A stretch of DNA of 64,000 bases from Aquificaceae bacterium (GTDB lineage: Bacteria > Aquificota > Aquificia > Aquificales > Aquificaceae), in the NCBI GenBank assembly GCA_041640635.1, contig JBEPZX010000007.1:11798-75797 (forward strand), given 5' to 3'. Both the position numbers and the translations under genes were made by a program. Of this stretch, positions 4,580-46,151 are shown one piece after another (the first letter of the stretch is position 1; each line of letters begins with the position of its first letter). The notes beneath the pieces are model-generated. The model did no database searches. It had not been told where the DNA came from and was given only the letters and a program-made list of their open reading frames with translations.

Positions 4580-5672
4580 TCTAACACCGTATTTTCACAA
4601 AAAAAGCGGTGGGATAAAAAGCTTCATACTAAAAAAGGTAGATTATCTTCCAAAATACGAAGTGCAACACGTAGTAGTAATACCGGGCAAAGAAAGAAAA
4701 AAGTACATGTATGGTTCTACAGTGTTTTACGAAGTTCCGTCTTTTCATATTCCTTTTTCGGGTGGGTATAGATTTTTTAGTGGACTAAAGGAAATAAAGG
4801 AAATTATACGACAAGAAAAACCCGACATTGTGGAGCTTGGGGGGACCTACACCATAGCTCCTTTTTTTGCCGATAAAGATTACCTGCTCTCTATATTCTA
4901 CCACTCGGATGCAAAAAAAGAGTTGGGTTTCATACCATCAACAAAGTATATGAAAGAGAGGTTTTTCAGTCTCTTGATAGACAGATGCATATCCAAAGCA
5001 GACTTAGTTATCAGCCCTTCTGAAAAGTATTCGCAATCTTTAATGGAAAAGATAAATAAAGTTTATACGTGTCCACTAGGGGTAGACACCAAGATATTTA
5101 ATCCTAGCAAAAGGGATGAAAGTTCTTTTAGAAAGAAATTTAATATACAAGAAGAAACTATACTTCTATACGTAGGCAGGCTAACAGTAGAAAAAAGGAT
5201 AGATATACTAATGAGCGCCATTGAACAATTGGATAAGAAACTTTACCATCTTTTAATAGTTGGATCTGGACCTCTAAAACTCTATGTAAAAGCTAAATCC
5301 AAAATACTTAAAAATGTAACATTTATTGATTACGTGACTTCCCAAGAAGAGCTATCCTATATATACTCCAATTGTCATATGTTTGTCAGCGCTTCTAAGT
5401 ATGAAACCTTTGGACTAGCTTTCCTAGAAGCTCAATCTAGTGGCTTGCCTGTAGTAGCTTTTGATTTAAACCTAGAAACTCAACTCCTAAAGGATTTCTT
5501 GGCTAAGGATTTTACCGTAGAAGCACTGGCACATGCTATATCCATTGCTAGGGAAAAACTTAATCCTACTATAAGAGAGTACTTACACACAAAAGTAAGA
5601 AGCTTATTTTCTTGGGAGAGCAGTTTCGATACGTATATGAGTATATATATGCAACATATGAGTTTAGTTTGA
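4566..5672 (+). CDS. Glycosyltransferase family 1 (GT4)
   Basis: 368 aa. LLYVGRLTVEKRID...ETFGLAFLEAQSSGLPVVAF is a GT4 C-terminal domain. Overlaps the previous gene by 14 nt. Confidence 0.8.
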   Translation: MKLLDLTPYFHKKSGGIKSFILKKVDYLPKYEVQHVVVIPGKERKKYMYGSTVFYEVPSFHIPFSGGYRFFSGLKEIKEIIRQEKPDIVELGGTYTIAPFFADKDYLLSIFYHSDAKKELGFIPSTKYMKERFFSLLIDRCISKADLVISPSEKYSQSLMEKINKVYTCPLGVDTKIFNPSKRDESSFRKKFNIQEETILLYVGRLTVEKRIDILMSAIEQLDKKLYHLLIVGSGPLKLYVKAKSKILKNVTFIDYVTSQEELSYIYSNCHMFVSASKYETFGLAFLEAQSSGLPVVAFDLNLETQLLKDFLAKDFTVEALAHAISIAREKLNPTIREYLHTKVRSLFSWESSFDTYMSIYMQHMSLV

Positions 5673-5795: not shown

Positions 5796-7628
5796 ATGCA
5801 AGAGTATAATCCAAAACACATAGAAGGAAAATGGCAAAAACACTGGGAAGAGCAAGGTGTTTTTAAAACACAAGAAGGTGACAGCACACAAAAAATGTAC
5901 GTGCTAGAGATGTTTCCTTATCCATCTGGCAGGATACATATGGGGCATGTGAGAAACTATACCATAGGGGATGCATTATCTAGATACCTAAGACTAAAAG
6001 GTTACAATGTTCTTCATCCTATGGGTTGGGATGCTTTCGGTCTCCCAGCAGAGAATGCTGCTATAAAGCACGGTGTACATCCAGCTGAATGGACATATGA
6101 AAACATAACGTATATGAAAAAACAACTAAAACTACTAGGTTTATCCTACGATTGGGATAGGGAGATAGCAACCTGTAATCCAGAATACTACAAATTCAAC
6201 CAATGGATATTTTTGAGGATGTACGAAAAAGGGCTTGTCTATAGAAAAACAGCAGAGGTTAATTGGTGTCCCAACGACCAGACAGTCTTAGCTAACGAAC
6301 AAGTTATAGATGGAAAGTGCTGGAGATGTTCCACGCCAATAGTTAGAAAAGAAGTCCCTTCTTGGTATATACGCATAACTGCTTATGCGGAAAGGTTGCT
6401 TGAGGACTTAAAGAAACTCGAAGGACACTGGCCAGAAAGAGTTATTGCTCAACAAAGAAACTGGATAGGAAAGTCAGAAGGTGCCACCATAGTGTTTTAT
6501 GTAGATGATATACCCATAGAGGTTTTTACGACTAGACCTGACACTGTTTTTGGGGCTACCTTCTTGGCTTTGGCTCCAGAGCATCCTTTAACCTTAGAAC
6601 TTGCGAAAAAGGGAACTAATTACCAAGCTGTAGCTGAATTTGTAGATAAGATAAAATCAATGTCAACACGTGAACGGGGAACTCTTGCGGAGAAAGAAGG
6701 TGTATTCTTAGGTGTGTATGCTAAAAATCCAGCTAATGGGGAACTGATTCCTGTTTGGACAGTAAACTACGTGCTCTACGAGTATGGAACAGGCGCCATA
6801 ATGGCTGTACCAGCTCATGACCAAAGGGATATGGAATTTGCAAAAAAGTACAATCTTCCAATAAGAGTAGTAATAAAACCTTACTCAGAACACGATTGGA
6901 ACTTAGCTTATGAGGGTGATGGCACTTTAATGAACTCTCATCCTTTTGATAACATGGATTCCAAGAGCGCAAAAAAAGCTATAACTCAGTGGTTAAAAGA
7001 TAAAGGTTTTGGGAACTTTAAGGTGAGCTATAAACTCAGAGATTGGAATATATCAAGACAGAGATACTGGGGAACTCCAATACCTATAATCCATTGTCCA
7101 AACTGTGGCATAGTTCCCGTACCGGAAGAGGACCTTCCCGTCTTGCTTCCTTCCAATGTAAGTATAACTGGGCATGGAAATCCACTTGGAAGTGTTCCAG
7201 AATTTGTGAATGTTAAATGTCCAAAATGTGGAAGTGATGCAAAAAGAGAAACAGATACAATGGACACATTTTTTGACTCTTCTTGGTATTTTCTACGCTT
7301 TTGTGATCCAAAAAACGAAAAACTACCTTTTTCAGAAGAAAAGGTAAATTATTGGATGCCTGTGGATACCTATATAGGTGGTATAGAGCACGCTGTTTTG
7401 CACCTTCTGTATGCAAGATTTTTCCAAAAATTTTTATATGATTTAGGCTTAGTAAAGTATGATGAGCCTTTTAAAAACTTGGTAACCCAAGGTATGTTAC
7501 TAAAGAGATGGGTAAGCATAGGGAATTTCATGTCTTATATGAATTTGATATTAGACGATAATATAGAAAAACTCATCCATATTATAGAGGAGGTATCCAA
7601 TGACAAAGGAATTCGAAATAGGCCTTAA
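5796..7628 (+). CDS. leuS: Leucyl-tRNA synthetase, alpha subunit of a split LeuRS
   Basis: 610 aa, with the HMGH motif ([15 protein letters not shown]) and the editing/CP1 region. It ends just after the NLVTQGM region and before any KMSKS motif, as in the two-subunit alpha/beta LeuRS of Aquifex. No SD precedes the ATG, and TATAAT lies about 10 nt upstream (possibly leaderless). Confidence 0.9.
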
Positions 7629-7926
7629 CCTCATACGTACCGTATCAGGTCAGATGAGTTCCATAATAGAAACTCAAGATAGTTCTTCTGTAAAGAAGGT
7701 TGTTAAATCTATATTTAATCCTATAGTGGCTGCTGCTTATCAAATAAGAGTAGGAGAAGGTCCGAAAAAGGAAGAAATTTTGAATACTCTAATAAGTTTA
7801 GTCAAATTAATGAGAGATTTGGAAGACATAAATGGTATAAAGGTGAAAGCAAAAGATCTACTAAATTTAGTAAAAGATGTAGAAATGGAGCTAAACAATG
7901 CTACAAAAGGAAATGCAACCAGTTAA
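7600..7926 (+). CDS. Hypothetical protein (108 aa)
   Basis: A strong SD (GAGGAGG) sits 7 nt upstream of the ATG. The ORF overlaps the leuS-alpha 3' end by 29 nt and the panB 5' end. No recognisable motif. Confidence 0.45.
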
Positions 7927-8713
7927 TATAAAGACTCTTTTGAAAAAGAAAAGAGAAAGGAAGAAGATAACCATGGTTTCTACTTACGACTATATATCTG
8001 CTAAACTTTGCGATGAAGTGGGAATAGATTGTGTCTTGGTAGGTGATTCTTTAGGTATGGTTTTTCAAGGAATGAATACCACTCTTCATGTTACTTTGGA
8101 TGAGATGATATACCATACCAAGATTGTTAAAAAAGCTTGTAATAGAGCTTTCGTTATAGCAGATATGCCTTTTATGAGCTATCAAGTTAGTATAGAAAAA
8201 TCTATAGAGAATTGTGGAAAGGTGATAAAAGAAACAGGTGCTAACGCAGTAAAGCTTGAAGGTGGTGAAGAAATCGCAGAACTCGTTTATAAACTAGTAA
8301 ATATTGGAATACCAATTGTTGGGCATGTAGGTATGACTCCACAAAGTGTAAATGTGTTAGGAGGCTTTAGGGTAGTAGGAAAAGTAGAAGAGGAGAAAGA
8401 AAGAGTTATTAAAGATTATAAGGCCTTGGAAGAAGCTGGAGCTTTTATGATAGTATTGGAAAGTGTACCAAGAGATCTTTGCAGCCAGATAAATAGTTCT
8501 TCAAAAAGCATAACCATAGGTATAGGTGCAGGTCCAGATTGCGATGGACAAGTGCTGGTATTTCACGATTTGGTAGGTCTAACACAGGATAAAAAACCAA
8601 AGTTTGTCAAAAGGTATGCTGATGGATACAGCTTATTTAAATCAGCTTTACTAGAATATAAAAGGGAAGTGGAAGAGGGTATTTTCCCTTCTGAAGGGGA
8701 GAGTTATGGATGA
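7913..8713 (+). CDS. panB: 3-methyl-2-oxobutanoate hydroxymethyltransferase (ketopantoate hydroxymethyltransferase)
   Basis: STYDY...LVGDSLGMV...ADMPFMSY...KLEGG...GHVGMTPQ are PanB signatures. The start is moved to MQPVN (the ORF track gives 7898) by alignment logic with E. coli PanB. Confidence 0.9.
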   Translation: MQPVNIKTLLKKKRERKKITMVSTYDYISAKLCDEVGIDCVLVGDSLGMVFQGMNTTLHVTLDEMIYHTKIVKKACNRAFVIADMPFMSYQVSIEKSIENCGKVIKETGANAVKLEGGEEIAELVYKLVNIGIPIVGHVGMTPQSVNVLGGFRVVGKVEEEKERVIKDYKALEEAGAFMIVLESVPRDLCSQINSSSKSITIGIGAGPDCDGQVLVFHDLVGLTQDKKPKFVKRYADGYSLFKSALLEYKREVEEGIFPSEGESYG

Positions 8714-10409
8714 AACAAAGCTCTTAGAACTTTTTGTTAGGGTTGGTTACATAACCAAGGAGCAGTCTAAAGAAGCACTAACAAAGAAAGAAAAGAATGA
8801 GAGTATTATAAACACGCTCATAAGACTAGGGTTTTTAGACGAGGAGAAATTAATAGAGTTCTATTCGGCTTTCATGCCCAACAAGGTGTGGAAAGGTAAA
8901 CTAGAGGATGTATCGCTTCCTGATAATATTCTAAGAAAAATACCAGAAAGCTTTATAAAAGAGAAGTTGGCTGTTCCTGTTAAGTATCACGAAGACGGAA
9001 AGCTGGAAGTTATTATGCTTAACCCCTATGATCAGTCAATTGTAAACGAAATAAGATTCAGAACAAAGATAAATACAATACTGGCTTATGCAGCACCAAA
9101 GAGTACTATAGAAGCAGCTATTAATAAGCTTTATCCAGAAACAGAAAAAATTCTTGAAGAAATTAACTTAGAAGAAGAGGTAGAAATAGAGTCTCCAGAC
9201 TCCGAAATAAGTGTGGACATAGCACTAAGAGAAAGTGGTGAGGCTCCTATAGTAAAGCTAGGAAATGGTATCATATTTGAAGCCGTTAACTTAGGAGCAT
9301 CAGACATTCATATAGAACCGCAAGAGAAAGAAGTTTTAGTAAGATATAGGGTAGATGGGATTTTAAAAGTATATCATAGATTGCCTTTGCGTGTAAAGGA
9401 TGCCTTAATAGCAAGATTTAAAATAATGGCTAATGTGAAAATAGAGGAGAAGAGGTTACCTCAAGATGGAAGGATACGCATAAGAATTTCCGGCAGGAAG
9501 ATAGATCTGAGATTTTCCACAGTGCCGACTGTATATGGAGAAAAGATTGTTATGAGGATCCAGGAAGCAGAAAAGTACTTAGGTGTAAAGTTGGAAGACT
9601 TAGGTTTTGAGTTAGATGATTTAGAGAAGTTTAGAAAAGCCATATGGACACCTTGGGGAATGGTCTTGGTTACTGGACCTACAGGAAGTGGAAAAACTAC
9701 TACTCTTTACTCTGCATTAATGGAGAGAAATAGCCCAGATGTCAACATAATGACAGCGGAAGATCCAGTAGAAGTATCCATTCCAGGTTTAAATCAGGTT
9801 CATGTTAGAGAGGATATAGGTCTCACATTTGCTAGCGTCTTGAGAGCATTCCTAAGACAAGATCCAGACATAATCCTCATAGGTGAGATAAGGGATAAAG
9901 AAACAGCTGAAATTGGAATAAAGGCTGCTTTAACTGGGCACTTGGTATTCTCCACTCTGCACACAAACGATGCTCCATCTAGCATAACAAGATTAGTCGA
10001 TATGGGTGTAGAACCTTTCTTAGTTGGATCATCAGTGATACTTATAGTAGCACAAAGGTTAGTTAGAAAGCTGTGTCCCAAATGTAAAAAGCCTGCTGAC
10101 ATACCAAAAGAAGCACTTTTTAGATTAGGTGTTATAAACAATCTGGACGAAGATATAACCATATATACTCATAGTCCTGAAGGATGTGATTTTTGCAAAG
10201 GCAGTGGTTACAAGGGTAGAACAGCTGTTCATGAGTTGCTCGAAGTTGATGAAGACATGAGGAGATTGATAGTTAAAGGTGCTACGGCGGAAGATATTAG
10301 AGACTTGGCAAAAAAACAGGGCATGAGAACATTGTATCAGTCTGGTATTCTAAAAGTTAGAAAAGGTTTGACTTCTCTTGAAGAGGTAGAGAGAGTTTTA
10401 GCCAAGTGA
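8706..10409 (+). CDS. pilB: Type IV pilus assembly / type II secretion ATPase (PilB/GspE family)
   Basis: 567 aa. N-terminal T2SSE_N-like domain; Walker A GPTGSGKTTT; Asp and His boxes; tetra-Cys zinc motif (CPKCKK...CDFCKGSG). Confidence 0.85.
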   Translation: MDETKLLELFVRVGYITKEQSKEALTKKEKNESIINTLIRLGFLDEEKLIEFYSAFMPNKVWKGKLEDVSLPDNILRKIPESFIKEKLAVPVKYHEDGKLEVIMLNPYDQSIVNEIRFRTKINTILAYAAPKSTIEAAINKLYPETEKILEEINLEEEVEIESPDSEISVDIALRESGEAPIVKLGNGIIFEAVNLGASDIHIEPQEKEVLVRYRVDGILKVYHRLPLRVKDALIARFKIMANVKIEEKRLPQDGRIRIRISGRKIDLRFSTVPTVYGEKIVMRIQEAEKYLGVKLEDLGFELDDLEKFRKAIWTPWGMVLVTGPTGSGKTTTLYSALMERNSPDVNIMTAEDPVEVSIPGLNQVHVREDIGLTFASVLRAFLRQDPDIILIGEIRDKETAEIGIKAALTGHLVFSTLHTNDAPSSITRLVDMGVEPFLVGSSVILIVAQRLVRKLCPKCKKPADIPKEALFRLGVINNLDEDITIYTHSPEGCDFCKGSGYKGRTAVHELLEVDEDMRRLIVKGATAEDIRDLAKKQGMRTLYQSGILKVRKGLTSLEEVERVLAK

Positions 10410-10471: not shown

Positions 10472-13279
10472 ATGGCATTTTGGAATAAACTACTATCTTT
10501 TAGCAAAAAAGAAAAACAATCCGCTCAGTTCATCATCAAAGCAGGCAATAAAGATTTAATGCTTTGGCTACTGCAAGAAATGGAGCCAAGCTTAGATGAG
10601 CGTATAGAAGAGTTTTGGATAGAAACTGTAGGCATATCTGACGATGGTTATTGGATATTAGTTGGAAGAAGACATGGTATCATTCAACTTTATGATTGGA
10701 AAGGACGCCTGCATAAGCTTCCATCAAGGCCCCCAGCTCAGGTTATTTCAGACGTGGTATTTAACAAACGATTTCTTGGACTTTTGACACCTCCATACTT
10801 GGTTGTTTACTTCATGGAAGACCCAAGAAAGCCAAACACATGGCGAAGCTTTAAGCTTTCTCAGGAAGGTATTAGACCTTCCGTAGGTTTAGACATAAAA
10901 GATGGAATCTTAGCTTTTGGTGTTGTGGGGGAACGCATATACACTATAGACCTAAATTCAGATTTAACATTGCAAACGGTAGATTTTAAAAGCACCTTTA
11001 GCTACAAGGACGCGGATATAGGGGAGCTCAAAACTTTAAAGATCCTCGACGCTTCGAGAATGTTTCTCTCTGGGACGAGGGGATGCGCCATATATAGCTT
11101 TTCGGGAAACCTTCAAAATGTGTTACCAATAGAAGCTATGAAAGCCGTATGCTTAAAAGGTGATAACCTTTACCTTGGCAATGGCAATCAACTTGTTATT
11201 TATAACCACCATCTTGGTACGGACCTTCAAAAAATAGAAACACCCATAAATATTTCCTACATTGATATAGATCCATCCGAAAGTTTTGCCTTCCTGGCGG
11301 ATGCCGAAAGTAACAGAATGGGAATAGTTGATCTTAAGAGTTCTAGTTTCTTAGAAACAATAGAAGGTTTCGGCAATTCCATTGTAAGAATTAGTCCTGA
11401 TGGAACTCTATACACGTCTTACTATATAGAAAACCAGGACATAAAGCTTTACTATCTTGCAAAACTCAATAGTAATTTAATAGACTTTTGGTATCCTAAA
11501 GATAGACAAAACCAAATTTTAAAAAATGCAAAAGAATTATACAAGAACTTACTAAAGAAACTCAAAGCCTCAAAAGATTTAAAAGATCTGGAAAATATAC
11601 AAGAATATCAAACCCTACTATCCATGGATCTACCCATAAGGGAGTTAAGAGAAATTATTGAGGAAACTCATAGTGCACTTGAGAACAGGCGACTAGAAAT
11701 ATTCATAGAATCCGTAAGAGAGAAAATAAATCAAGGTAATGTAACTAAAGAGGATTTAAGAGAGGTTGAAAATAAACTAAAGATTAAACCAATAAAAGAG
11801 CTTGAAGACTTAAAAGCAGATTTAATAAATTTCTTCGAAAAAAGTCTTGAAGAAAAGTTAAAAGACATGGAAAATATGCTATCAAACACACAAATATTAT
11901 CTTTCCAAGAAGCCGAAACCTTGCCTGAAATAAGAAAGTTACGCGAGTTTATAGCTTCTTTACCTAAAGAGATATACCAAAGAGGTCAGGAAAGATTGTC
12001 TAAGATCTTGAGTGAAAAACTAATAAAGTACAGATTTGAAAGATTCAAAATAACTCTGGACAAAGACAGAATTGTTTTTGGTGAGGTAGATTTTCCAAGA
12101 TTCTCTGGAGAGAGAAAGAAGCTAAAGTGGAGGATAAGAACGGAAGATAGAATGATCGTAGACAACAAAGAATATGTAAGGCTAGGTTTTGAAAGAGAAG
12201 ATGGCATAATACTAGAACCCAAAAGGTACCCTTCCATTCTAACCGTAGGAGATTTAAAACATACACCAAAATGGTTGAAGAGATACCTTAGACACTTAAA
12301 CAATCTCTACCCTTACCAGGTGTACAAAATGCCTATTATGGTTTCTTACGAGGAGACACCTTGGTTTGTTCAAAACTTGGAGAAGTTTGCTTATCTAATA
12401 AAAGAACAGCTAATTTACAGGGATGGGATAGTTATATTGGAAGGTGATGCCGGAGTAGGTAAAAATTTCTTAGTAGAAGTGTTTGCCATATTGACCAATA
12501 GACCTCTCTATATAATACCTTGCAACTCCAAAATGGAAAAAGAAGACCTTACATTTGTTTACGAGTTTGACCCTCAAAGAGGCACACGTAAAGTGTATTC
12601 CGATTTGGTAAAAGCTCTTCAGACACCAGGAGCAATAGTCTACTTTGATGAAATAAACACCTTACCAGCCTCCTTAGTAAAAATGTTTAATCCACTATTT
12701 GACTACCGAAGGTATCTAGTTCTATCTTCTGGGGAAGTTGTTAAGGCAGAAAAGGATGTAATTTTTGTAGGAGGTATGAATCCACAAAACTATCTTGGTG
12801 TTTCTGAACTTCCACAGGACATAAAATCAAGATCAGATATGCTATTTATAGATTATCCTCCCTTTGAAGACGAAGGAAATATATATCACACAGATGAAGC
12901 TCTTATATTGAGAGACTATGTACCCTCTTTGTCATCTCTGAGCAAAGAAGAGTTTGTTTATGTGTGGCACTACATAATAAACAATATACCTCTGGATATA
13001 CCAAGTAATCTTTTAACAGAAGATGTGAAATATTATGTGCATTTGCTTTTTGAACTCATATCTATAGCTAACGCTATAAGGAAGGCTTATAGATCATACC
13101 AGATGCAACAATCAGAAGAACCTGTAGAGTTTGTTTTTTCTATTAGAGATACTATTAGATGTGCACGGAGATTACAAAAGTATAAGAATAGTAAAAATGT
13201 TGTGTTAGATACAATACTGCCAAAGGTCAGTTCACCATTGGAAAAGGAAATAATTAAGTCTATAGTAGAAAGAGTATGA
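10472..13279 (+). CDS. Large multidomain protein: repetitive beta-rich N-terminus (possible beta-propeller), central coiled coil, and C-terminal MoxR-like AAA+ domain with a non-canonical Walker A (GDAGVGKN)
   Basis: 935 aa. The C-terminal region aligns by eye to MoxR/NorQ/CbbQ: VILEGDAGVGKN / IVYFDEINTLP / FVGGMNPQN / SRSD. The middle ~250 aa are heptad-rich and K/E/L-rich. The N-terminal ~340 aa show repeated G-x-I-Y-x-x-D-L-like beta-strand motifs. Confidence 0.6.
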   Translation: MAFWNKLLSFSKKEKQSAQFIIKAGNKDLMLWLLQEMEPSLDERIEEFWIETVGISDDGYWILVGRRHGIIQLYDWKGRLHKLPSRPPAQVISDVVFNKRFLGLLTPPYLVVYFMEDPRKPNTWRSFKLSQEGIRPSVGLDIKDGILAFGVVGERIYTIDLNSDLTLQTVDFKSTFSYKDADIGELKTLKILDASRMFLSGTRGCAIYSFSGNLQNVLPIEAMKAVCLKGDNLYLGNGNQLVIYNHHLGTDLQKIETPINISYIDIDPSESFAFLADAESNRMGIVDLKSSSFLETIEGFGNSIVRISPDGTLYTSYYIENQDIKLYYLAKLNSNLIDFWYPKDRQNQILKNAKELYKNLLKKLKASKDLKDLENIQEYQTLLSMDLPIRELREIIEETHSALENRRLEIFIESVREKINQGNVTKEDLREVENKLKIKPIKELEDLKADLINFFEKSLEEKLKDMENMLSNTQILSFQEAETLPEIRKLREFIASLPKEIYQRGQERLSKILSEKLIKYRFERFKITLDKDRIVFGEVDFPRFSGERKKLKWRIRTEDRMIVDNKEYVRLGFEREDGIILEPKRYPSILTVGDLKHTPKWLKRYLRHLNNLYPYQVYKMPIMVSYEETPWFVQNLEKFAYLIKEQLIYRDGIVILEGDAGVGKNFLVEVFAILTNRPLYIIPCNSKMEKEDLTFVYEFDPQRGTRKVYSDLVKALQTPGAIVYFDEINTLPASLVKMFNPLFDYRRYLVLSSGEVVKAEKDVIFVGGMNPQNYLGVSELPQDIKSRSDMLFIDYPPFEDEGNIYHTDEALILRDYVPSLSSLSKEEFVYVWHYIINNIPLDIPSNLLTEDVKYYVHLLFELISIANAIRKAYRSYQMQQSEEPVEFVFSIRDTIRCARRLQKYKNSKNVVLDTILPKVSSPLEKEIIKSIVERV

Positions 13280-13294
13280 TTTAATATTTAGTTA

Positions 13295-14653
13295 ATGGGA
13301 AAAACGCTCCTTATTATCAGTTGCAGTGATTTGTTGATTTCCTTCCTATTTTATGGTTTGGATCTCATAAAATTGAGAGTGGACAGGAAAAACATGCTTA
13401 AGCTACCTGGAGCAATCTTTAAAGGAAAGGTAAAGCGGTTGGCAAAAGGTATGGGAGGAGTATTTGTAGATATAGGACTAGAAAAAGACGCTTACCTTCA
13501 AATAAAAGGAGGTTCACTTCCTAAAGTAGGGGAAAGCGTTATTGTTCAAGTAGCCAGAGAACCTATTGGGGATAAGGGAGCCAAACTTTCAGATCACATT
13601 AAGTTAATTGGTAAATACATGGTTTATATACCTCAATGTTACGATATAAAATGCTCTTCTAAAATAGAAAAAGACATCAAAGACAAGCTCATAGAAATGA
13701 TAAGACCTTATATAACAGAAGGAGGTACTATTCTTAGAACGGTATCTGCATCTGCTACAGAGGATGAACTTATAAAAGACATTAACAACCTAGTAAAAGT
13801 TTGGGGAAATATAAAGGAGCTATACCAAAAGAAAAGTGGTATTGGTCTACTTAAACAAGGTTTTAGTGAGTACTTGGATATAATAACTAATCATTGGCAT
13901 GAAATTGATGCTATAGTTGTGGATGACATAGATATATGGAACGAAATAAATACATATCTTGAATCTTTTCATCCACAATTGATGGAAAAAGTAATATATG
14001 CAAAAGACACTGTTACATACATAAAAAGATACGATATACACAATCACATAAATAAAGTGTTAGGTAAGCATGTATGGCTAAGAGGAGGAGGTTATTTGGT
14101 AATAGAAGAAACAGAAGCCCTTACGGTAATAGATGTAAACAGCGGTGAACCTTGTGGGGAGTCTCAGGAAGAAAATGCCGTTGAAACTAATATAGAAGCA
14201 GCCAAAGAAGTGGCTAAACAAATCGTTCTTAGGGATTTAGGTGGTATAATCATTGTGGATTTTATAGACATGAAAAAACAAGAAAACAAAGAGAAAGTTT
14301 TAAAGGTGTTTCAGGAATCCCTCGGAAGTGAATCTTGCAATGTTCATATTTATGGATTTACAAAGTTGGGACTTCTAGAATTGGTAAGGCGTAGAAGTTC
14401 CAAAAGCACGCCTAGAAAACTTTCAAAAACATGCCCATACTGTAAGGGCAAGGGTAGGCTAAAAAGTGAAGAACTTCTGCTTCTCGAACTTGAAAGCGAT
14501 TTAAAAACCATCAGAGCTCGTAAATTAGAAATAGATGTGAACCCACAGCTAGTGAAGTTCGTAAAAGCGTATGTAAAAAAGCTAAGTTTGGAAAATGTAG
14601 AAGTCAAATCAAGAGAAGATATAGAGGTAGGTAAGTATGAGATACACTATTAA
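13295..14653 (+). CDS. rng: Ribonuclease G (RNase E/G family)
   Basis: 452 aa. S1 domain (IFKGKVKRLAKGMGGVFVDIGLEKDAYL) and catalytic DNase-I-like region with VIDVNSGE. Confidence 0.85.
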   Translation: MGKTLLIISCSDLLISFLFYGLDLIKLRVDRKNMLKLPGAIFKGKVKRLAKGMGGVFVDIGLEKDAYLQIKGGSLPKVGESVIVQVAREPIGDKGAKLSDHIKLIGKYMVYIPQCYDIKCSSKIEKDIKDKLIEMIRPYITEGGTILRTVSASATEDELIKDINNLVKVWGNIKELYQKKSGIGLLKQGFSEYLDIITNHWHEIDAIVVDDIDIWNEINTYLESFHPQLMEKVIYAKDTVTYIKRYDIHNHINKVLGKHVWLRGGGYLVIEETEALTVIDVNSGEPCGESQEENAVETNIEAAKEVAKQIVLRDLGGIIIVDFIDMKKQENKEKVLKVFQESLGSESCNVHIYGFTKLGLLELVRRRSSKSTPRKLSKTCPYCKGKGRLKSEELLLLELESDLKTIRARKLEIDVNPQLVKFVKAYVKKLSLENVEVKSREDIEVGKYEIHY

Positions 14654-15536
14654 GCTTAGTATATTACTTTTAGTGTTCTTAATTGGTTGTGCTAAGGTTA
14701 CAGAAGAAAAGAGGGCTAAACTTGCTCAAGAGCTGTATACTGAAGGTATGTCGGCTTATACCAATAGAGACTACAAAAAATCCGCCGAACGATTAAAAGA
14801 ATCCCTAAAGTATATGGAAAACTTAACACCTGAACAAATAAAGGAAGCAAAATACGCTATAGCTGAGAGTTATTACCTAAGAAAGGACTATATAAATGCC
14901 GCCGTATATCTTGAAGACTTTATAGGTTCATACCCCGAATCTATGGAAACAGAAAGAGCATACTTTATGTTGGTTGATAGCTATATGAAAGTAGCACCTG
15001 ATGCTTACAGAGATCAAACCTATACATTAAAGGCTATAGAAAGAGCGAAGGACTTTATCACTAGGTATCCAGAAAGCTCTTACACGGATAGAGTAATAGA
15101 ATTAATAGATAAAGCTAATACAAAGATAGCCCAGCATGAATACTTAATAGCAAGATTTTACGAAGACTTTGGCTATTACTACTCAGCTTCTTCTAGATAT
15201 AGGGATATTATGCTCAATTATCAAGGTCAAATATCCGATGTCGATATATCGTACAGATACATAAAATCTTTGCTTCTCACAAAGAAACAGGCAAAAAGGC
15301 AGCAAGATAAATACACAAAGTGGGTAAAAGAAGCCGAAAATGCTCTAAAGAAGGCTAAGAGTCAAGATGAAAAAGAAGCTATAATAAAGAGAATAGAATT
15401 CTTTAAATCAGAAATTGATAGATGGGGGAAAATAGCTGAGGATAGTTACAGGAAGGGTTTAGATGCGTTGGAAAAGTATAGGCAGTTATATGGAGAGAAC
15501 AACTACTACAAAGAATTACAAAGATATGCAAAATAG
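14637..15536 (+). CDS. TPR-like outer-membrane lipoprotein, BamD (YfiO)-like
   Basis: 299 aa. Signal peptide with lipobox LIGC|A; TPR-like helical repeats. Sits in an operon with rsfS and a lapB-like gene. Confidence 0.5.
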   Translation: MRYTIKLSILLLVFLIGCAKVTEEKRAKLAQELYTEGMSAYTNRDYKKSAERLKESLKYMENLTPEQIKEAKYAIAESYYLRKDYINAAVYLEDFIGSYPESMETERAYFMLVDSYMKVAPDAYRDQTYTLKAIERAKDFITRYPESSYTDRVIELIDKANTKIAQHEYLIARFYEDFGYYYSASSRYRDIMLNYQGQISDVDISYRYIKSLLLTKKQAKRQQDKYTKWVKEAENALKKAKSQDEKEAIIKRIEFFKSEIDRWGKIAEDSYRKGLDALEKYRQLYGENNYYKELQRYAK

Positions 15537-15537
15537 T

Positions 15538-15870
15538 ATGAATGAAAAGCTTAGTTTGATAAAAAAATTGCTCGAAGACAAAAAAGCTGAGAATATAGTT
15601 GTGTTGGATGTTTCTAAATACACCAATATAGCTGATTACTTTGTTATATCTACTGCAACATCACCTATACACGCTCGAGCTTTGGCAGATTATTTAAGGG
15701 ATGAACTCGAAAAACACGGATATCTGGTAGACCATACAGAAGGTTTTGATAGCGCCAATTGGATTCTCGTAGATCTTGTAGATGTGATTGTTCATATTTT
15801 CCAAGAAGATTATCGTAATTATTACGATCTGGAATGGCTTTACTCTGGAGCACAGAGGATAGAATTATGA
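15538..15870 (+). CDS. rsfS: Ribosomal silencing factor RsfS (Iojap)
   Basis: NIVVLDVSKYTNIADYFVISTATSPIHARALADYLRDEL...WILVDLVDVIVHIF is an Iojap/RsfS signature. Start taken at MNEKLS, directly after the bamD-like stop. Confidence 0.85.
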   Translation: MNEKLSLIKKLLEDKKAENIVVLDVSKYTNIADYFVISTATSPIHARALADYLRDELEKHGYLVDHTEGFDSANWILVDLVDVIVHIFQEDYRNYYDLEWLYSGAQRIEL

Positions 15871-17012
15871 GATTAATAAAAGTTATTTTATTGGTGGCTT
15901 TAATTCTTTTCTTTTCCCTTTTTGTAACTCAAAATTACTCAATGATAAGTCTTCAGTTGCTCAGCTTTACATTTACATTACCTGCCTTTTTGTTGGTATT
16001 GATTTCACTATTTATTGGATTCATAATACCTAGCTTTTATTTTTCCGTAAAGCTTATTTCCAAAACGAAGAAATTAAATCAAATAAGTAAAGCACTAAGA
16101 TACTTTTACAAAGGTTATCCTTCAGTAGCTTTACACGTATCTGAACAATTAGCAAAGATTTGGGAACCTGCAGGCGTTATCTATATAGAATCTAACTTTG
16201 CTACCAAGAATTATTCAACAAGCTTAAACAAACTGGAGAGAAGTGAGGGTTTAGTTGAAGGTTATCTTGGAAGCCAGTTATTAAAAATTGGTCATATTCA
16301 ATTAGCAAAAGAATACTTAATATCGGCAATAAACAAGGACGAAAATAACTTAACGGCACTAAAAGCGTATAGGGACCTATGTTATATAGAGTCCAATATG
16401 GACGAATGTATAAAGTATCAAGAAAAAATACTTAATAAATGCGAAAGGTGGGAAAAAGAGGAACAAAAATCTATACTGGCTGAATTGCTATGTATATACG
16501 CGGAATCAATGAGTGACCTAAACGAGAAAGAACAGCTTTTAGAAAAAGCTTACGATACTTACAAAACTCCTTTTACGTATTATCATTATTTAGCTTATCT
16601 GCTAGAAATAGATAATTTAAAGAATGCGAGAAAGGTTATAGATAAAGTATTTAAAGAAGGTATTCAAGATGAGGTCCTTTTAATGGCGTCTAATAAAGAA
16701 ATTCTCTTAACTAAACTTTTGGATACTATAGAGCAATACAGAGATGTAATAAATCTAGAAGTATTGGCAAGAATTTACATAAAGTTGAATATGATAAGTA
16801 AACTACAACAAATAGAATCGAATTTGAAAGAACCATTACAAACCATAGTTAAAATGCATATAAATCACTCGAAAGAAGCCAAAACTTGCAAGGATACTCT
16901 CTTAGAACTTTACAAGCCTTGGGAATGTGTATGTGGTATAAATTATAATTTGTATATGCCCCTTTGCAAGAATTGCTATAGATGGAGGGAGATTAAATTG
17001 AGGAGGTCATAA
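15867..17012 (+). CDS. LapB (YciM)-like TPR membrane protein with C-terminal rubredoxin-like zinc ribbon; N-terminus has two TM helices (LapA-like)
   Basis: ATGA overlap with rsfS. N-terminal hydrophobic segments, TPR-like middle, and C-terminal CVCG-x9-CKNCYRW resembling the LapB CxxC...CPxCRAW metal site. Confidence 0.55.
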   Translation: MRLIKVILLVALILFFSLFVTQNYSMISLQLLSFTFTLPAFLLVLISLFIGFIIPSFYFSVKLISKTKKLNQISKALRYFYKGYPSVALHVSEQLAKIWEPAGVIYIESNFATKNYSTSLNKLERSEGLVEGYLGSQLLKIGHIQLAKEYLISAINKDENNLTALKAYRDLCYIESNMDECIKYQEKILNKCERWEKEEQKSILAELLCIYAESMSDLNEKEQLLEKAYDTYKTPFTYYHYLAYLLEIDNLKNARKVIDKVFKEGIQDEVLLMASNKEILLTKLLDTIEQYRDVINLEVLARIYIKLNMISKLQQIESNLKEPLQTIVKMHINHSKEAKTCKDTLLELYKPWECVCGINYNLYMPLCKNCYRWREIKLRRS

Positions 17013-17013
17013 A

Positions 17014-17583
17014 ATGATTGTAGACGCAAGTAATAAACTTATAAGATTGAAAGTTGTATACTATGGCCCAGCTATGTCAGGGAAAACCACAAATTTGGAA
17101 TACTTAGCAAAAAAAGAAGGTATGGATATGTTAAAGATAGACACAGCTGGGGATAGAACATTGGTATTCGATTTTGCGTATAAGAAGGTTCACCTAGATA
17201 GCTTTACAGTTTCTTTCGCTTTTTATACAGTTCCCGGGCAAGAAATTTACAAAGATATAAGGTTGACTGTTTTAAAGGGTGTAGATGCTATTGTTATGGT
17301 ATATGATGCACAAAGAGAAAGACTAGATGAAAATATACGTTTTAAGCATTTGGCAATCTCGGACATTAAAAAGGTAGGAAAAACTATAGAATCCATACCT
17401 GTAGTTTTTCAGTACAACAAAATGGATCTACCAAATGCGTTAGATTTTGAATCTTTAGAAGAAGAACTTAACCAAGAGGGTTATCAATCTATATGTGCAT
17501 CGGCTATAAAAGGTGAAGGGGTTTTAGAAACAGCGTCCTTGATTACAGAAATGCTAATATCTAAATTGTCAAAATTGGTGTAA
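17014..17583 (+). CDS. mglA: MglA-family Ras-like small GTPase
   Basis: 189 aa. Near-collinear match to Myxococcus MglA: KVVYYGPAMSGKTTNLEYL, DRTLVFDF, YTVPGQ, LKGVDAIV, QYNKMDLPNA, SAIKGEGV. Confidence 0.85.
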   Translation: MIVDASNKLIRLKVVYYGPAMSGKTTNLEYLAKKEGMDMLKIDTAGDRTLVFDFAYKKVHLDSFTVSFAFYTVPGQEIYKDIRLTVLKGVDAIVMVYDAQRERLDENIRFKHLAISDIKKVGKTIESIPVVFQYNKMDLPNALDFESLEEELNQEGYQSICASAIKGEGVLETASLITEMLISKLSKLV

Positions 17584-17587
17584 AACT

Positions 17588-19012
17588 ATGTTATCTGGAT
17601 ATACAAAGAGTCAGCAAGAGCTCATAGATATAGTAAATGGATGTCTCCTCAACAAAGTGGGTGTTCTGGATCTTTTTTCTATGAGAACTTCTTTATCTAT
17701 TTATATAGAGCATGGATACGTCTTAGGTTTTTTTGTAGAAGGCATGAGAGACTTACAAGATCAGACTATAAATAGCGAAGCTTTGTTATTTTTCTACATG
17801 GCAGATTTTCTAAATTCACCTTCTGCATTCTTTAGTTTCAGAGATAGAGTAAAAAGTGATATATTCGTATATTTAAGTAGACAAATCCATGTAGAAGAGC
17901 TCATATTACAAGCTCAATTAGCTTCGTCAGAACTCATCTCTCTTCTTGAAAGAATCATTACACCTTATGCCGTCTTAAAGGCTCAGCAGCCATTTTCTGA
18001 AATGAACTTTTTCGATGGAAAAAGTGTTTATGAAATAATTGCAACTTCAAAAGACAGCTTTATAGATACAATAAGAAAACTAAAGTCCCTAATTTCCAAA
18101 GGATTCTTAGATATACATCAATTTTATCACCCTGCAAATGAAAAAAGTGAGCCTCACGTTAGCGTAATAATGCAGGGGGTAGAAGCTAACAAAATAAAGC
18201 TCATATCAATAATGGAAAACTTAGTGCTTGGTAGATTTTCAGGTTTCCTAAGGATAAACATTCATGGAGATTCTGTATATATCTATTATATCAAGGGCAA
18301 ACCCATAGCTTTACATCCTATTAACTATCCAATTTTTGATTTTTTAATTGATGTAAAAGGAGATGCAAAAGTAAGCGCAGTTGAATTAGACGATAGGACT
18401 ACAAAGTTGCTTATATTGAGGCACTTTGGTAATAGGGTTATTTCAGGTATTACGGATAATTTCTTGGAGTTGGGTAAAATACTAATGGGCATTAATATAG
18501 AGAGCAAAAGCGGTATAATTGTTATAAGATCCTCAGGGAACGAAAATTATATACTATACGAAGGTGGAAGGGTTTTAACATTTCTTAAGAAGGGTGAGGA
18601 GGGTATTATAGAAATAATCTCAGATTTGGACATAAAGCACCCATATTGGATAGATGTTATCTTTTTTGACAGTGTGGAAAACATGGATAAAGTCGTTTAC
18701 CTTTCTTTAATAAATATAACTTACGGTATCCTTCTAAGAAGTGGAAATGAGCATATTATAAATAGCGTAAAAAATTATATCGCAGGGTCAGAAAATTTTA
18801 AGTATGAGGAAGGACAAATAAAGTATAGAGGCTTACCTCAAAATACGGACGATGTTGTCGCTTTTCTTTCATTCTTACTGGATATGAGTTATAGGATCTT
18901 AGGTGAGAAAAATCTCGAGGAGGAACTTCACCAATCTTTACAGCCTTACAAAGATGTATTTAATGTTTTAGGCGTTCAAGACTATACAAAATCATTTGTG
19001 GAAGGGTACTAA
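17588..19012 (+). CDS. Hypothetical 474-aa protein with three internal repeats of a DUF4388/PATAN-like module; putative MglA partner
   Basis: Starts 4 nt after the mglA stop. Three repeats fit the pattern h..h..G.L.h..G..hYIYh.G.hh: LDLFSM..LSIYIEHGYVLGFFVEG, LISIMENLVLGRFSGFLRINIHGDSVYIYYIKGKPIA and LGKILMGINIESKSGIIVIRSSGNENYILYEGGRVL. Confidence 0.4.
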   Translation: MLSGYTKSQQELIDIVNGCLLNKVGVLDLFSMRTSLSIYIEHGYVLGFFVEGMRDLQDQTINSEALLFFYMADFLNSPSAFFSFRDRVKSDIFVYLSRQIHVEELILQAQLASSELISLLERIITPYAVLKAQQPFSEMNFFDGKSVYEIIATSKDSFIDTIRKLKSLISKGFLDIHQFYHPANEKSEPHVSVIMQGVEANKIKLISIMENLVLGRFSGFLRINIHGDSVYIYYIKGKPIALHPINYPIFDFLIDVKGDAKVSAVELDDRTTKLLILRHFGNRVISGITDNFLELGKILMGINIESKSGIIVIRSSGNENYILYEGGRVLTFLKKGEEGIIEIISDLDIKHPYWIDVIFFDSVENMDKVVYLSLINITYGILLRSGNEHIINSVKNYIAGSENFKYEEGQIKYRGLPQNTDDVVAFLSFLLDMSYRILGEKNLEEELHQSLQPYKDVFNVLGVQDYTKSFVEGY

Positions 19013-19030: not shown

Positions 19031-19444
19031 TTATAAACCTATTATTTTTATGATAGCCTTCTTGTTTCTGCATCCATCAAACTCTACATAAAAAACTTCC
19101 TGCCATGGTCCCAAATCTAAACTTCCCTTTGTTATTGGTAGTATTACCTGAAGGTGAGCTATTAGGTTTTTTAGATGTGCATCAGCGTTATCTTCACCCG
19201 TTTTATGATGATTGTAGTCTTCCTTAAAAGGTGCTATATGTTCTAACCATTCCCATATATCTTTGTGGAGACCTTCTTCATCGTCTTGAACTATTACAGA
19301 AGCTGTGAGATGCATAGAAGAAACCAGGCACAAACCTTCCTTTATACCTGATTCCTGCACTGCCTTTCTTACCTGGTCGGTAATTCTAATTATGTCTTTC
19401 CTCTTTTCCGTTTTAAAAGTTAGATACTTGGTATAAGATTTCAT
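19031..19444 (-). CDS. yjbQ: YjbQ/UPF0047 family protein (secondary thiamine-phosphate synthase-like)
   Basis: 137 aa, ITDQV...[14 protein letters not shown]...[12 protein letters not shown] is a UPF0047 signature. Confidence 0.8.
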
Positions 19445-20289
19445 CCTACTCTTATAAAACTTCTCTTTTTCAATTTTTCCAATAGATCTTTTCTTGCAGA
19501 TTCAAGCTTCCTCTGAAGTAACTCTTCCTTTAGAATTTCCGTGTTTACGCCTTCTAAAACTTCTTTTTGCCCCAATATTTGTGCAATGTAGATATGATTC
19601 TCATCTTCCGCAAATACAATCTCTCCCTTACCAGCTTTCCATACCTCTCTGTCTAATGCATCTATTAGCTCACCTTTTCCTACTTCTAAATGTTCCATCT
19701 TAATTCCTAGGCTTTGTGCTATTTTGTCCACATCCTTCTCTTTTTCCACCAACTGGGAGAGTTTTTGAGAGTCCTTTTTATCAACCACTAGTAGCTTTAT
19801 CTCCTTTACGAATTTCAAGTTGCCTCTCTTTAGTTTCTCTATCTCAGTTTCTATATCAGAAACCCTTATTTCCTTGAGTAAAAGAATGTCTAAAGCTTGC
19901 GTGGAGAGTATGAGTTTTCTTAAAAAATTTTTCAAATCCTGGGCACTTATGTTTTGTTTATGCAAATCTTCTATTAACTTATCTAAGCTTTTATTGTTTG
20001 CCTTTGCTATATCAAGAAGCATATTATCCACGTATTCGTCGCTTACGTAGGCACCTTTGCTTTCTACATACTGCGATAAAATCCAAGTATCTATAAGTCG
20101 TTGTACAACCGCTTTTTCATCGTCAGTATTGTAAAAGGACATACCGATAATTACGTCTGTCATTAGTATAGGTTCTCCATTTACCGAAGCCACTACCTTG
20201 TCTAGTAGAACTTGTGAGAAAGAGCTGTATAACGTTGCTAGAAAGAGTATAATTCCAATTGATAGTTTCTTAAGACTCTCTGAAACCAT
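19441..20289 (-). CDS. SurA N-terminal-domain-like periplasmic chaperone
   Basis: Signal peptide followed by [17 protein letters not shown] (SurA_N-like). No obvious parvulin domain. Confidence 0.5.
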
Positions 20290-21056
20290 TGTGTAAACAC
20301 CTCCTGTCTTTTCTCCTTTAGAAGTTTTTCTCTAACTAAAGGTTTAGCTTCATCCAATGGGATTATACCACTACCTCTCTTGTTTATAACTTTTAATATA
20401 AGATATCCTGATCCGGTATCTATTGGCTTAGATACTTTTCCAATATCGTAAGGATGAAGCTGATTTCTTATGATCTCTGGAAGGGTCTGTATAGAGTACC
20501 ACATGGGCGCACCTTCTCTATAATTGGCATTAGTAGGTAATCTGTTATTTATTAATGCGCTGTAAACCTCATTTGCGTTGTCTAAATCGTCAGTAAATAT
20601 TCTTTGAAGTAATACTTGTGATGGTCTTTTGAAGTCTCTCAAATTTAAGTAATAATAAGCAACGATTTGTTCATCGTTAACTACAATGTTTTTCGCTATT
20701 CTGTCTACTATTTTCTGAGATAGTAATTCTGATCTGACCATGTAAGTTACAATAGGGCTTAAGTTACGTCTACCTATTGTTCTATCTACATACTCCTGAA
20801 GCTCTGATTCAGATACAGAAATATTCATACTTTTTGCTTCTCTCTCTATTATCCTTGCACGTATGTATTCAAGCAAAAAATTTCTCATATCTTCTTTGGT
20901 AGCTTGGGTTATAGGTAAATGGACAATTTCACGCCAGTATGTACTAAAGTAACTTTGAAATTGATCTTTAGTTATAACTTCTTTGTTTATCTTGGCTACA
21001 ACTTGACCATAGCATAGATTCACAAAGAAAAAAAATAAGATGGATAAGAATACCAT
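20238..21056 (-). CDS. Peptidyl-prolyl cis-trans isomerase, parvulin (PpiC/SurA/PrsA-like)
   Basis: Signal peptide; the C-terminal SGYLILKV resembles the parvulin GYHIIKV motif. Confidence 0.55.
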   Translation of the reverse strand: MVFLSILFFFFVNLCYGQVVAKINKEVITKDQFQSYFSTYWREIVHLPITQATKEDMRNFLLEYIRARIIEREAKSMNISVSESELQEYVDRTIGRRNLSPIVTYMVRSELLSQKIVDRIAKNIVVNDEQIVAYYYLNLRDFKRPSQVLLQRIFTDDLDNANEVYSALINNRLPTNANYREGAPMWYSIQTLPEIIRNQLHPYDIGKVSKPIDTGSGYLILKVINKRGSGIIPLDEAKPLVREKLLKEKRQEVFTQWFQRVLRNYQLELYSF

Positions 21057-26397: not shown

Positions 26398-26769
26398 TTA
26401 TGTTAATTTTTCCAATAGATTGTTTGCTCCATTCAATTTTTGATAGGCTGAGGATATAACATAGTAAAGTTGTTCACCTTCCGCTATACTTAAATCGTAC
26501 AAAGTATTACTTAAATCTTTTAGTGTGCTGTACAAAGTGGAATAGAGAGTCTCGTCTAATTTTTTCTCTGGATTTGGTATCTCTTTATATATACTGAGGA
26601 TATAATCACATATACCTTTTATGGTATTTATTATATTGCTTACTTCCAGATCCTCCTTATACGCGTTTGAGACTTCGTTGTATATCTCCCCTAGTTCTTT
26701 AGCTTGGCTCTTAAAAAGCATATCTTCCAACATATGAACTGTTTTGTCCATGGCTTCACCTCTTATCAT
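26398..26769 (-). CDS. Hypothetical helical protein (123 aa)
   Basis: All-helical composition, no motif recognised. Divergent from the downstream + strand cluster. Confidence 0.4.
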   Translation of the reverse strand: MIRGEAMDKTVHMLEDMLFKSQAKELGEIYNEVSNAYKEDLEVSNIINTIKGICDYILSIYKEIPNPEKKLDETLYSTLYSTLKDLSNTLYDLSIAEGEQLYYVISSAYQKLNGANNLLEKLT

Positions 26770-26869: not shown

Positions 26870-27778
26870 ATGCTGAAGGGGATTAAAGAAACAGATAAAC
26901 TTCAGAGTATGTTTTTGGAAGTTTTGGATGATCCTTATAAGAAAGAACTGTTTATATACCTAATGTGTTATATACAAATTGTTAGAAGGGAAGGGAACTC
27001 CTTAGTAGAGCTAAGTAGGTACCTTTCGTGCTCATCAAACAGTTTTAAAAAAGATAGACATCACTGGAAAGACTTACTCGTGGAATTAAACATTTTTTAT
27101 GTGATAGATACTTATAATCGAGTTTACATTGGTAAGGATATATATAAAGTAGATGAGTCTGATATAAACCTTATAGGTCTGATAGACAACTACGCAAAGA
27201 ATTTTGAGGATTTTAGTTACAGAGTTACAAAATACTGGAATATTATTAACAAAGCTTACATACATTCTACAAAATTGGACGTGTACAACAGCATATCTTT
27301 GCTATGCTTAATTTTCAATGAGGAGCTCTACGAAGAGGCTATTTTATATGCAGAAAATTGTAGTTATAGGTTTATAAAAGAGAGTGCTTTTTTTGAAGCT
27401 GTTAAACACTTGAGTCTAATGGAAAGCTCAAGTGATAAAGAAGAAAAGATAAGACACGCTAGAAATTCATTGAAGATGCTCGGTCCACTAAAGGACATTT
27501 ATTACGAAGTTAATATAAAGAAACTGATCCAGGATGTTAATGATGCCATAAGAAAGCTCCAAAAAAACAGGGATTACAATAAGCTAAAGATAGAAATGAT
27601 AAATTTAAAAGGTAGGAGAAAAGGAGGACTTCTACAAAAAGTGTTGAGCTGGATAGAAGGAAAGTTAAAGAACCTAAAAGGAGGAAAGAAATGGACTTTG
27701 GACAGCTCAGAGATAGCTTTTTGCAGTTCCATAGATTGCTCTTGGAGAAATCAGACAAGACCCAAGATCCAAACTTAA
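26870..27778 (+). CDS. Hypothetical protein (302 aa), Lys-rich C-terminus
   Basis: First gene of a packed + strand run (302 aa / 68 aa / HD / TgpA). No motif recognised. The 3' end overlaps the next ORF by 88 nt and may be over-extended. Confidence 0.45.
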   Translation: MLKGIKETDKLQSMFLEVLDDPYKKELFIYLMCYIQIVRREGNSLVELSRYLSCSSNSFKKDRHHWKDLLVELNIFYVIDTYNRVYIGKDIYKVDESDINLIGLIDNYAKNFEDFSYRVTKYWNIINKAYIHSTKLDVYNSISLLCLIFNEELYEEAILYAENCSYRFIKESAFFEAVKHLSLMESSSDKEEKIRHARNSLKMLGPLKDIYYEVNIKKLIQDVNDAIRKLQKNRDYNKLKIEMINLKGRRKGGLLQKVLSWIEGKLKNLKGGKKWTLDSSEIAFCSSIDCSWRNQTRPKIQT

Positions 27779-45926: not shown

Positions 45927-46151
45927 TTAGGAATTCTCCTTTAAAAAATTAGATACCATAAATTCTATCATATCTTTGTGATATAGCCTCTCCCTTTTTA
46001 GCCTTTCTATCTCCATTTCCAGCTCATGTGTCATAGGATGATGCTTCTCTAACTTATCAATTTCTTTGTCAAGTTCCTCATGTTTTTCATAGTGATACCT
46101 GAACTCTTTGTCTTTTTCTAGCAGTATCCTTATAGCCTCGTCTCTTGTCAT
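45927..46151 (-). CDS. DUF465-like small coiled-coil protein
   Basis: 74 aa with His-rich heptads (HYEKHEELDKEIDKLEKHH...). ATGA overlap with the upstream membrane ORF. Confidence 0.5.
   Translation of the reverse strand: MTRDEAIRILLEKDKEFRYHYEKHEELDKEIDKLEKHHPMTHELEMEIERLKRERLYHKDMIEFMVSNFLKENS

Follow-up and report, generated by a model that had tools for sequence, protein, structure and literature searches.

A stretch of 64,000 nucleotides of contig JBEPZX010000007.1 from an Aquificaceae bacterium (assembly GCA_041640635.1), here called the window, carries a tightly packed three-gene cassette that is conserved in Aquificales. The cassette encodes a membrane-anchored tetratricopeptide repeat (TPR) protein, an MglA-family small GTPase, and a cytoplasmic protein built from three PATAN-like modules. 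Its action as a functional unit is well supported. By analogy with known systems, a membrane-tethered GTPase/adaptor module controlling an envelope machine would be its most likely function, a reading that is put forward tentatively; type IV pili would be the target with the best precedent, and the assembly of lipopolysaccharide (LPS) and the outer membrane the rival target. The data show directly which proteins these are, how they are built, how closely their genes are coupled, that the trio is kept where its flanks differ, and that catalytic residues are relaxed in the MglA clade. An MglA without MglB beside a PATAN gene is already known, having been catalogued for the Aquifex and Hydrogenobacter orthologues in 2010 and 2014. 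New here are the LapB-like third partner, the build of the PATAN protein from three modules and the extremely narrow distribution of its family, and the catalytic erosion in the MglA clade.

Organisation and conservation of the cassette

The three genes follow one another on the forward strand. The first (15867–17012, +) encodes the TPR protein of 381 residues, in which two N-terminal transmembrane helices (LapA_dom) are followed by a TPR region and then by a C-terminal zinc-ribbon motif of four cysteines (Cys4). The second, mglA (17014–17583, +), encodes a Group 1-like GTPase of 189 residues, and the third (17588–19012, +) encodes the triple-PATAN protein of 474 residues. Only 1 nt separates the TPR gene from mglA and 4 nt separate mglA from the PATAN gene, the Shine-Dalgarno sequence of mglA (GGAGG) being located within the 3' end of the TPR gene. 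The stop codon of rsfS overlaps the ATG of the TPR gene (ATGA), and the start of the TPR protein at 15867 (MRLIK) agrees with the MNFIK start of its orthologues. The same layout, a lapB-like gene, mglA, and a 474-residue open reading frame (ORF) with gaps of 1 and 4 nt, had been given in the original prediction, a note made from the letters of the window, and the coordinates confirm it. Promoter and terminator scans gave a site count no higher than in shuffled sequence.

The trio was compared at the loci L001–L006, L009/L010, L011/L012, L013/L014, and L017. As the original prediction had expected of an operon kept in relatives, it is intact in every relative examined, with the identity of the PATAN protein ranging from 89% down to 21%. 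A larger six-gene block, RNase G–BamD–RsfS–TPR–MglA–PATAN, is kept in L001–L006, L009, and L017. These loci comprise H. hydrogenophilus (L001), the 89% relative and four further Hydrogenobacter or Aquificaceae genomes (L002–L006), a locus pair with a PATAN protein of 29% identity (L009/L010), and the cultured Thermocrinis minervae (L017). In L013/L014, where the PATAN protein is 25% identical, other housekeeping genes lie upstream and the trio stays together with overlapping ends; the TPR homologue of L013 has 369 residues (BLAST E 5e-26) and the same transmembrane and cysteine motifs. In L011/L012 (21% identity), the contig begins inside a gene ending with the same cysteine motif, which is followed by MglA and PATAN. 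At least two flanking contexts are therefore verified, that of L013 versus that of most loci, and a third, that of L011, is cut at the contig end. Since the upstream genes are replaced in L013 and the trio is kept, the trio is the conserved unit.

Architecture of the three proteins

The GTPase matches the solved MglA structures of M. xanthus (PDB 6hjh, E 9e-35) and T. thermophilus (PDB 3t12, E 2e-32), in both cases over residues 3–187, and possesses the motifs GPAMSGKTT, DRTLVFDF, YTVPGQ, and NKMD, so that the MglA identity read earlier from its Myxococcus-type motifs holds. The features of Group 1 MglA proteins are all found, namely similarity over the full G-domain, a GxxxxGKT P-loop, a TVPGQ G3 motif with Thr in place of the Ras Asp, and NKxD. 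The intrinsic arginine finger adjoining the G2 threonine is also present (DRTL). At the catalytic positions, the window protein has Ala (G21 in M. xanthus), Arg (R53), and Gln (Q82).

When 5.8 billion proteins are searched, the clade of this MglA stands out as 68 clusters at an identity of at least 56%, with a sharp boundary at which identity falls to 45% in the next MglAs. Its members are almost all 190 residues long, and the named ones belong to Aquificaceae (Hydrogenobacter, Thermocrinis). The catalytic residues were tallied in the orthologues P0031–P0097 of window 17014–17583. Across the 68 clusters, the position equivalent to G12 of Ras and G21 of M. xanthus is never Gly (Ala in 37, Ser in 16, Thr in 14, and Pro in 1). 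The arginine finger is Arg in 43, Lys in 22, His in 2, and Ser in 1, and is thus lost in 25 of 68, and the catalytic Gln is kept in 61 and replaced in 7 (His in 5 and Asn in 2). Nine of nine outgroup MglAs keep both Arg and Gln. The drift of the arginine finger and Gln is specific to the 190-residue clade, at variance with a published statement (PMC4316618) according to which every Group 1 member conserves the Arg. Such a loss of catalytic residues would fit MglB-independent operation of the clade. The closest relative of the window MglA (P0031, 93% identical) has Lys where the window protein has Arg. Ala at the Ras G12 position was also considered as a marker of MglB independence and was rejected, for the nearest MglB-coupled outgroup MglAs carry Ala too.

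The 474-residue protein belongs to a family matched by PF14332, which is named DUF4388, PatA_N in the newer Pfam release, and PATAN in the Synechocystis preprint (10.1101/2021.06.11.447907). The window protein itself is a borderline case, its 25.1 bits barely exceeding the gathering score of 25.0. In the family, 18 of 18 members match at E ≤ 1, and six of six individually scanned relatives lie above the cutoff (best E 4e-13). The match is confined to the N-terminal half of the Pfam model (positions ~4–72). The early assignment of the protein to DUF4388/PATAN was right. The family is extremely narrow: an exhaustive profile search of 1.84 billion representative proteins found 17 proteins at E ≤ 0.001. 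A second homologue search using the alignment gained one further sequence, and a scan of the genome collection with a 10-sequence alignment found 5 loci. Alignment of the family with one single-domain PatA_N protein by hhalign is weak (E 0.026).

Module 1 occupies residues 1–178 (17588–18121, +), module 2 residues ~195–283 (18170–18436, +), which form the segment matching DUF4388 positions 6–59, and module 3 residues ~284–360 (18437–18667, +). A helical domain constitutes the C-terminus (residues ~365–474; 18680–19009, +). BLAST self-comparison of the protein detects no internal repeat, and the repeats emerge only at the profile level. Self-comparison by hhalign with 18 orthologues aligns residues 194–242 with 284–332 (E 8e-5) and residues 24–80 with 218–258 (E 0.016), the latter pair with 16 extra residues inserted in the first copy. 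Scanned alone against the N-terminal half of DUF4388, modules 2 and 3 give E values of 0.033 and 0.17, respectively; module 1 scanned alone has no Pfam match. In relatives, either two DUF4388 stretches pass or the best stretch is in module 3 (e.g., P0017).

In the AlphaFold2 model of the whole protein, with a predicted local distance difference test (pLDDT) score of 72, the order of helix, three-strand meander, strand(s), and helix is repeated three times. Modelled as a separate domain (residues 1–181; pLDDT 85, predicted template modelling score 0.83), module 1 contains a helix, a three-strand meander, a helical insertion, two strands, and a long helix, followed by a winged-helix-like tail. 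The helical insertion corresponds to residues 51–75 relative to module 2. An alpha-helical insertion within the PATAN domain was reportedly noted by Makarova and colleagues in 2006. The confidence of module 3 is low (pLDDT 50–63). The C-terminal domain is all-helical, well predicted, and rich in invariant residues. Of the "three, possibly four" modules proposed at first sight, the profile self-comparison and the model thus support three, but the fourth is lost because residues 365–474 are helical. A Roadblock/LC7 fold, sought as a Pfam Robl_LC7 match and as structural similarity to MglB, was not found in the protein, and neither this protein nor MglA contains a hydrophobic segment.

The TPR protein contains hydrophobic segments at residues 1–21 and ~38–65. 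LapA_dom, with its two transmembrane helices, is matched in seven of seven Aquificaceae orthologues (best E 1e-6) in addition to TPR models, and the TPR region matches designed TPR proteins in the PDB. Because positive charges follow the second transmembrane helix, the sequence suggests that the TPR and zinc-ribbon parts are cytoplasmic, like MglA and the PATAN protein. The invariant C-terminal motif of the window subclade is W-x-C-x-C-G-x9-C-x2-C-x2-W, with CxC in place of the first CxxC. Distant relatives have CxxCG-x9-CxxC-xx-W, the spacing of which is identical to that at the extreme C-terminus of E. coli LapB (MG1655). The E. coli LapA/LapB pair (YciS/YciM) has in common with this protein the LapA-type membrane domain, the TPR array, the terminal CxxCG-x9-CxxC-xx-W rubredoxin-like motif, and a length of ~380 residues. 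However, here the LapA-like and LapB-like parts reside in one polypeptide, and no significant sequence similarity exists: hhalign against E. coli LapB gives a probability of 4% over one TPR only, and no LapB model in Pfam, NCBIfam, or the PDB matches the protein. Judged from its sequence, the protein is LapB-like in its predicted architecture of anchor, TPR array, and Cys4 site, and not a proven LapB. The earlier description of a LapB-like TPR membrane protein with a zinc ribbon is thus retained for the architecture and the Cys4 spacing, but not for a significant LapB match.

Related systems and the absence of an adjacent MglB

Fremgen et al. 2010 (PMC3000849) listed an A. aeolicus homologue of 190 residues, 43% identical to M. 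xanthus MglA, with the entry "MglB: No", and Wuichet and Sogaard-Andersen 2014 (PMC4316618, Table S2) tabulated aq_1560 and HTH_1432, both of 190 residues, as "MglA>PATAN>". The latter study, citing Makarova et al. 2006, places some Group 1 and Group 5 mglA genes near PATAN genes, in agreement with the genomic association of PATAN and MglA-like GTPases that the original prediction had mentioned. The aq_1560 and HTH_1432 loci share with the window a Group 1 MglA of the 190-residue type, the lack of an adjacent MglB, a PATAN gene immediately downstream, and the organism family, and in this analysis the six-gene block was also seen in Hydrogenobacter and Thermocrinis genomes. We infer that the window cassette is orthologous to aq_1560 and HTH_1432 on the grounds of length, taxon, and neighbourhood, without use of their sequences. 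Unlike the present analysis, the published tables give a neighbourhood string only, without the transmembrane TPR–zinc-ribbon partner, the triple-module build, the narrow distribution, or the catalytic drift.

No Robl_LC7 match occurs among the cassette neighbours or the small ORFs of the window, a tblastn search of the window with two MglB/Roadblock sequences returned noise only (E > 1), and no Roadblock/LC7 gene lies within four genes of mglA in the window. The claim of an mglA without an adjacent MglB is thereby borne out. Four window ORFs (26398–26769, −; 46148–46558, −; 49479–49922, −; and 26870–27778, +; 123, 136, 147, and 302 residues, respectively) match no Pfam family at the thresholds applied, and none of them resembles MglB by tblastn. 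Likewise, no Robl_LC7 gene adjoins the trio in L001–L010, L013, or L017. Two outgroup MglAs, the nearest ones whose loci were inspected, carry Ala at position 21, and the gene for each immediately follows a Robl_LC7 gene and has a PatA_N gene close by; as both have MglB and PATAN, PATAN is usually an additional partner and not a replacement. HTH_1830 and Thal_1140 are tabulated as "<MglA<MglB", and HTH_0572, aq_1844, and Thal_0484 as "MglB>PATAN>MglA" (PMC4316618, Table S2). Two observations, taken together, had been named in advance as speaking against the prediction. MglA–MglB or MglB–PATAN–MglA loci do exist elsewhere in H. thermophilus, T. albus, and A. aeolicus, but the 474-residue protein, which was to lack a PATAN- or Roadblock-like fold, does have a PATAN match.

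The MglA–MglB systems of M. xanthus and T. thermophilus have a GTPase ~43–45% identical to the window protein, which also shows the TVPGQ G3 motif and the arginine finger. However, the cassette contains no Roadblock GTPase-activating protein (GAP), the G1–G2 region is shorter, and the catalytic residues of the clade are relaxed. In the case of Bdellovibrio, MglA has Ser at position 21 and no MglB, binds the TPR protein Bd2492, and is needed for pilus formation and prey invasion, and the gene of Bd2492 is co-transcribed with the tamAB outer-membrane assembly genes (Milner et al. 2014, PMC3983030). The mention of a TPR partner of MglA in Bdellovibrio in the original prediction was therefore correct. 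The Bdellovibrio hub of MglA, Bd2492, and RomR, the output of which is type IV pilus formation at one pole, resembles the cassette in its lack of MglB, the non-Gly residue at position 21, the TPR partner, and the location of the TPR gene beside outer-membrane assembly genes. In contrast, Bd2492 is soluble, has neither a LapA-type anchor nor a zinc ribbon, and is not encoded beside mglA; furthermore, no PATAN protein occurs there and no RomR is seen here.

PATAN binds the N-terminal domains of PilB1 and PilC (bioRxiv 10.1101/2021.06.11.447907), and this binding is the only experimentally defined function of PATAN. The cyanobacterial PatA-type regulators PixE, PixG, and LsiR, which bind PilB1 and PilC, share PF14332 with the window protein. 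Compared with these regulators, in which one PATAN is fused to a receiver, the window protein lacks a receiver and combines three modules with a C-terminal domain that is helical and distinct. The literature search found no study testing PATAN against MglA and none linking MglA with LapB.

Candidate functions of the cassette

As a membrane-tethered GTPase/adaptor module, the cassette may act as follows. The inner-membrane TPR protein would hold MglA-GTP at the membrane, a role modelled on SgmX and Bd2492, TPR proteins to which MglA binds in other systems. The triple-PATAN protein would be a multivalent effector or adaptor linking the MglA switch to the envelope machine, and motor components of type IV pili, the only PATAN targets with experimental support, would be candidates for its binding partners. 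MglA would work without an MglB/Roadblock GAP, probably as a slow or largely GTP-bound GTPase, since its clade never has Gly at the Ras G12 position and often replaces the arginine finger and Gln. Control would come from partner binding or abundance and not from MglB-stimulated hydrolysis, as proposed for Bdellovibrio MglA.

Several points weigh against this mechanism. Every step of it is drawn from precedent. The window MglA retains both Arg and Gln and, by sequence, may be a competent GTPase; its Ala at the G21 position, shared with MglB-coupled MglAs, is not diagnostic by itself. MglB is encoded elsewhere in related genomes and could act in trans on the cassette MglA, and L011 contains a gene of 122 residues (4278–4646, −) with a weak Robl_LC7 match, located four genes away from the PATAN gene (five counted from mglA); it is the sole Roadblock-like gene near any copy of the cassette. 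In addition, unrelated genes are tightly packed in Aquificae genomes, which weakens inference from adjacency alone.

The pilus target meets objections of the same kind. A gene for a PilB-type ATPase (T2SSE and MshEN; 8706–10409) lies 5.5–6.6 kb upstream of the cassette, and directly after it a gene (10472–13279, +) encodes a protein of 935 residues, of which the ~600 N-terminal ones match nothing in Pfam and the C-terminal part contains an AAA_5 (dynein/MoxR-type) ATPase domain (E 3e-27). This pair lies beside the trio only in the window and in its closest relative, L002 (89–93% identical). pilB is absent from the visible flanks of L001, L003–L006, L009, L013, and L017; the L011 flank is truncated by the end of its contig. 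Nor does any further pilus gene occur near the cassette or among the scanned ORFs of the window. Linkage of pil genes to the cassette is therefore not conserved. pilB was rejected as a member of the module on synteny, and the type IV pilus module that the original prediction had framed around it finds little backing.

The alternative that survives best, possible though on the unlikely side, is that the TPR/zinc-ribbon protein is the LapB (YciM) equivalent of this lineage, with MglA and the triple-PATAN protein as dedicated regulators that tune or spatially direct LPS and outer-membrane assembly. The LapA_dom, the TPR array, and the C-terminal CxxCG-x9-CxxC-xx-W motif, with a spacing and length like those of E. 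coli LapB, are consistent with this, as is the co-transcription of the Bdellovibrio MglA-binding TPR gene with tamAB (PMC3983030). The neighbourhood points the same way: most loci have bamD immediately upstream, L009 has lpxI oriented divergently upstream of the block (888–1673, −), and in the window the cassette is closely followed by two genes for SurA-like periplasmic chaperones (19441–21056, −). Together, these genes lend the neighbourhood a flavour of outer-membrane biogenesis that is not conserved everywhere. However, L013 does not retain the neighbours bamD, surA, and lpxI, the similarity to E. coli LapB is not significant by hhalign or by the Pfam, NCBIfam, and PDB searches, and no MglA-family GTPase is known to regulate LPS, just as no MglA–LapB link appears in the literature searched.

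The two further explanations are less likely than either the pilus-adaptor or the envelope reading. It is improbable that the triple-PATAN protein is a nucleotide-state regulator of MglA, that is, a non-Roadblock GAP or a guanine nucleotide exchange factor replacing MglB, although such a role would be compatible with both the pilus-adaptor and the envelope readings. PATAN as a substitute for Roadblock fares poorly, for the protein has no Roadblock fold and the two nearest outgroup MglAs keep MglB plus a PATAN protein. Mere adjacency without shared function, with packing as in streamlined Aquificae operons and MglA served by an MglB encoded elsewhere, would suit the MglB genes at other loci in related genomes, the unrelated housekeeping genes of the larger block (RNase G, RsfS), and the uninformative promoter and terminator scans, but it is very unlikely, given a trio that is intact despite changed flanks (L013 versus the others) across 21–89% identity, a PATAN family of 17 representatives in 1.84 billion that is beside this MglA clade in every case examined, and the relaxation within the clade of the residues needed for MglB-type GAP action.

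The remaining genes around the cassette are context and not core. Immediately upstream, overlapping or adjoining one another and packed up to the cassette, Pfam and NCBIfam identify RNase G (13295–14653, +), BamD (14637–15536, +), and RsfS (~15538–15870, +). Downstream of the cassette in the window, a YjbQ gene and the two SurA-like genes converge on it. In L001 (11394–13377) and L017 (9983–11960), the PATAN gene runs into genes for an OmpR-type response regulator and a HAMP-HisKA kinase, the stop and start codons overlapping; these Hydrogenobacter and Thermocrinis loci differ in this from the window, where the convergent YjbQ gene takes the place of the pair. The MshEN domain carried by the PilB here is a c-di-GMP-binding domain in other systems, and a GGDEF diguanylate cyclase gene (31321–32349, +; E 2e-46) lies ~12 kb downstream of the cassette. 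Farther upstream, an ORF (5796–7628, +) encodes a leucyl-tRNA synthetase fragment of 610 residues that comprises the catalytic and editing domains and stops early; after it comes a 108-residue ORF without a Pfam match (7600–7926, +). This arrangement fits the split leucyl-tRNA synthetase known from Aquifex.

MglA-type GTPases are the bacterial model of Ras-like polarity switches, and the mechanistic knowledge of them comes almost entirely from MglB-coupled systems. PATAN domains are widespread beside MglA and MglB. The cassette is compact, thermostable, and strictly conserved, and offers an MglA paralogue with only two fixed partners. The catalytic residues of this MglA drift naturally among R, K, and H and among Q, H, and N, and the cassette is therefore a convenient system for the relation between PATAN and MglA and for MglB-free control of MglA. 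If the LapB resemblance is functional, small-GTPase signalling would be tied to outer-membrane biogenesis. That the LapB-like protein is a regulator of envelope biogenesis in Aquificales, with the MglA paralogue and the triple-PATAN scaffold as its dedicated switch, is rather unlikely; if true, it would be the first Ras-superfamily GTPase governing LPS and outer-membrane assembly, in a clade partly without the hydrolysis machinery, and would give PATAN a role outside pilus control.

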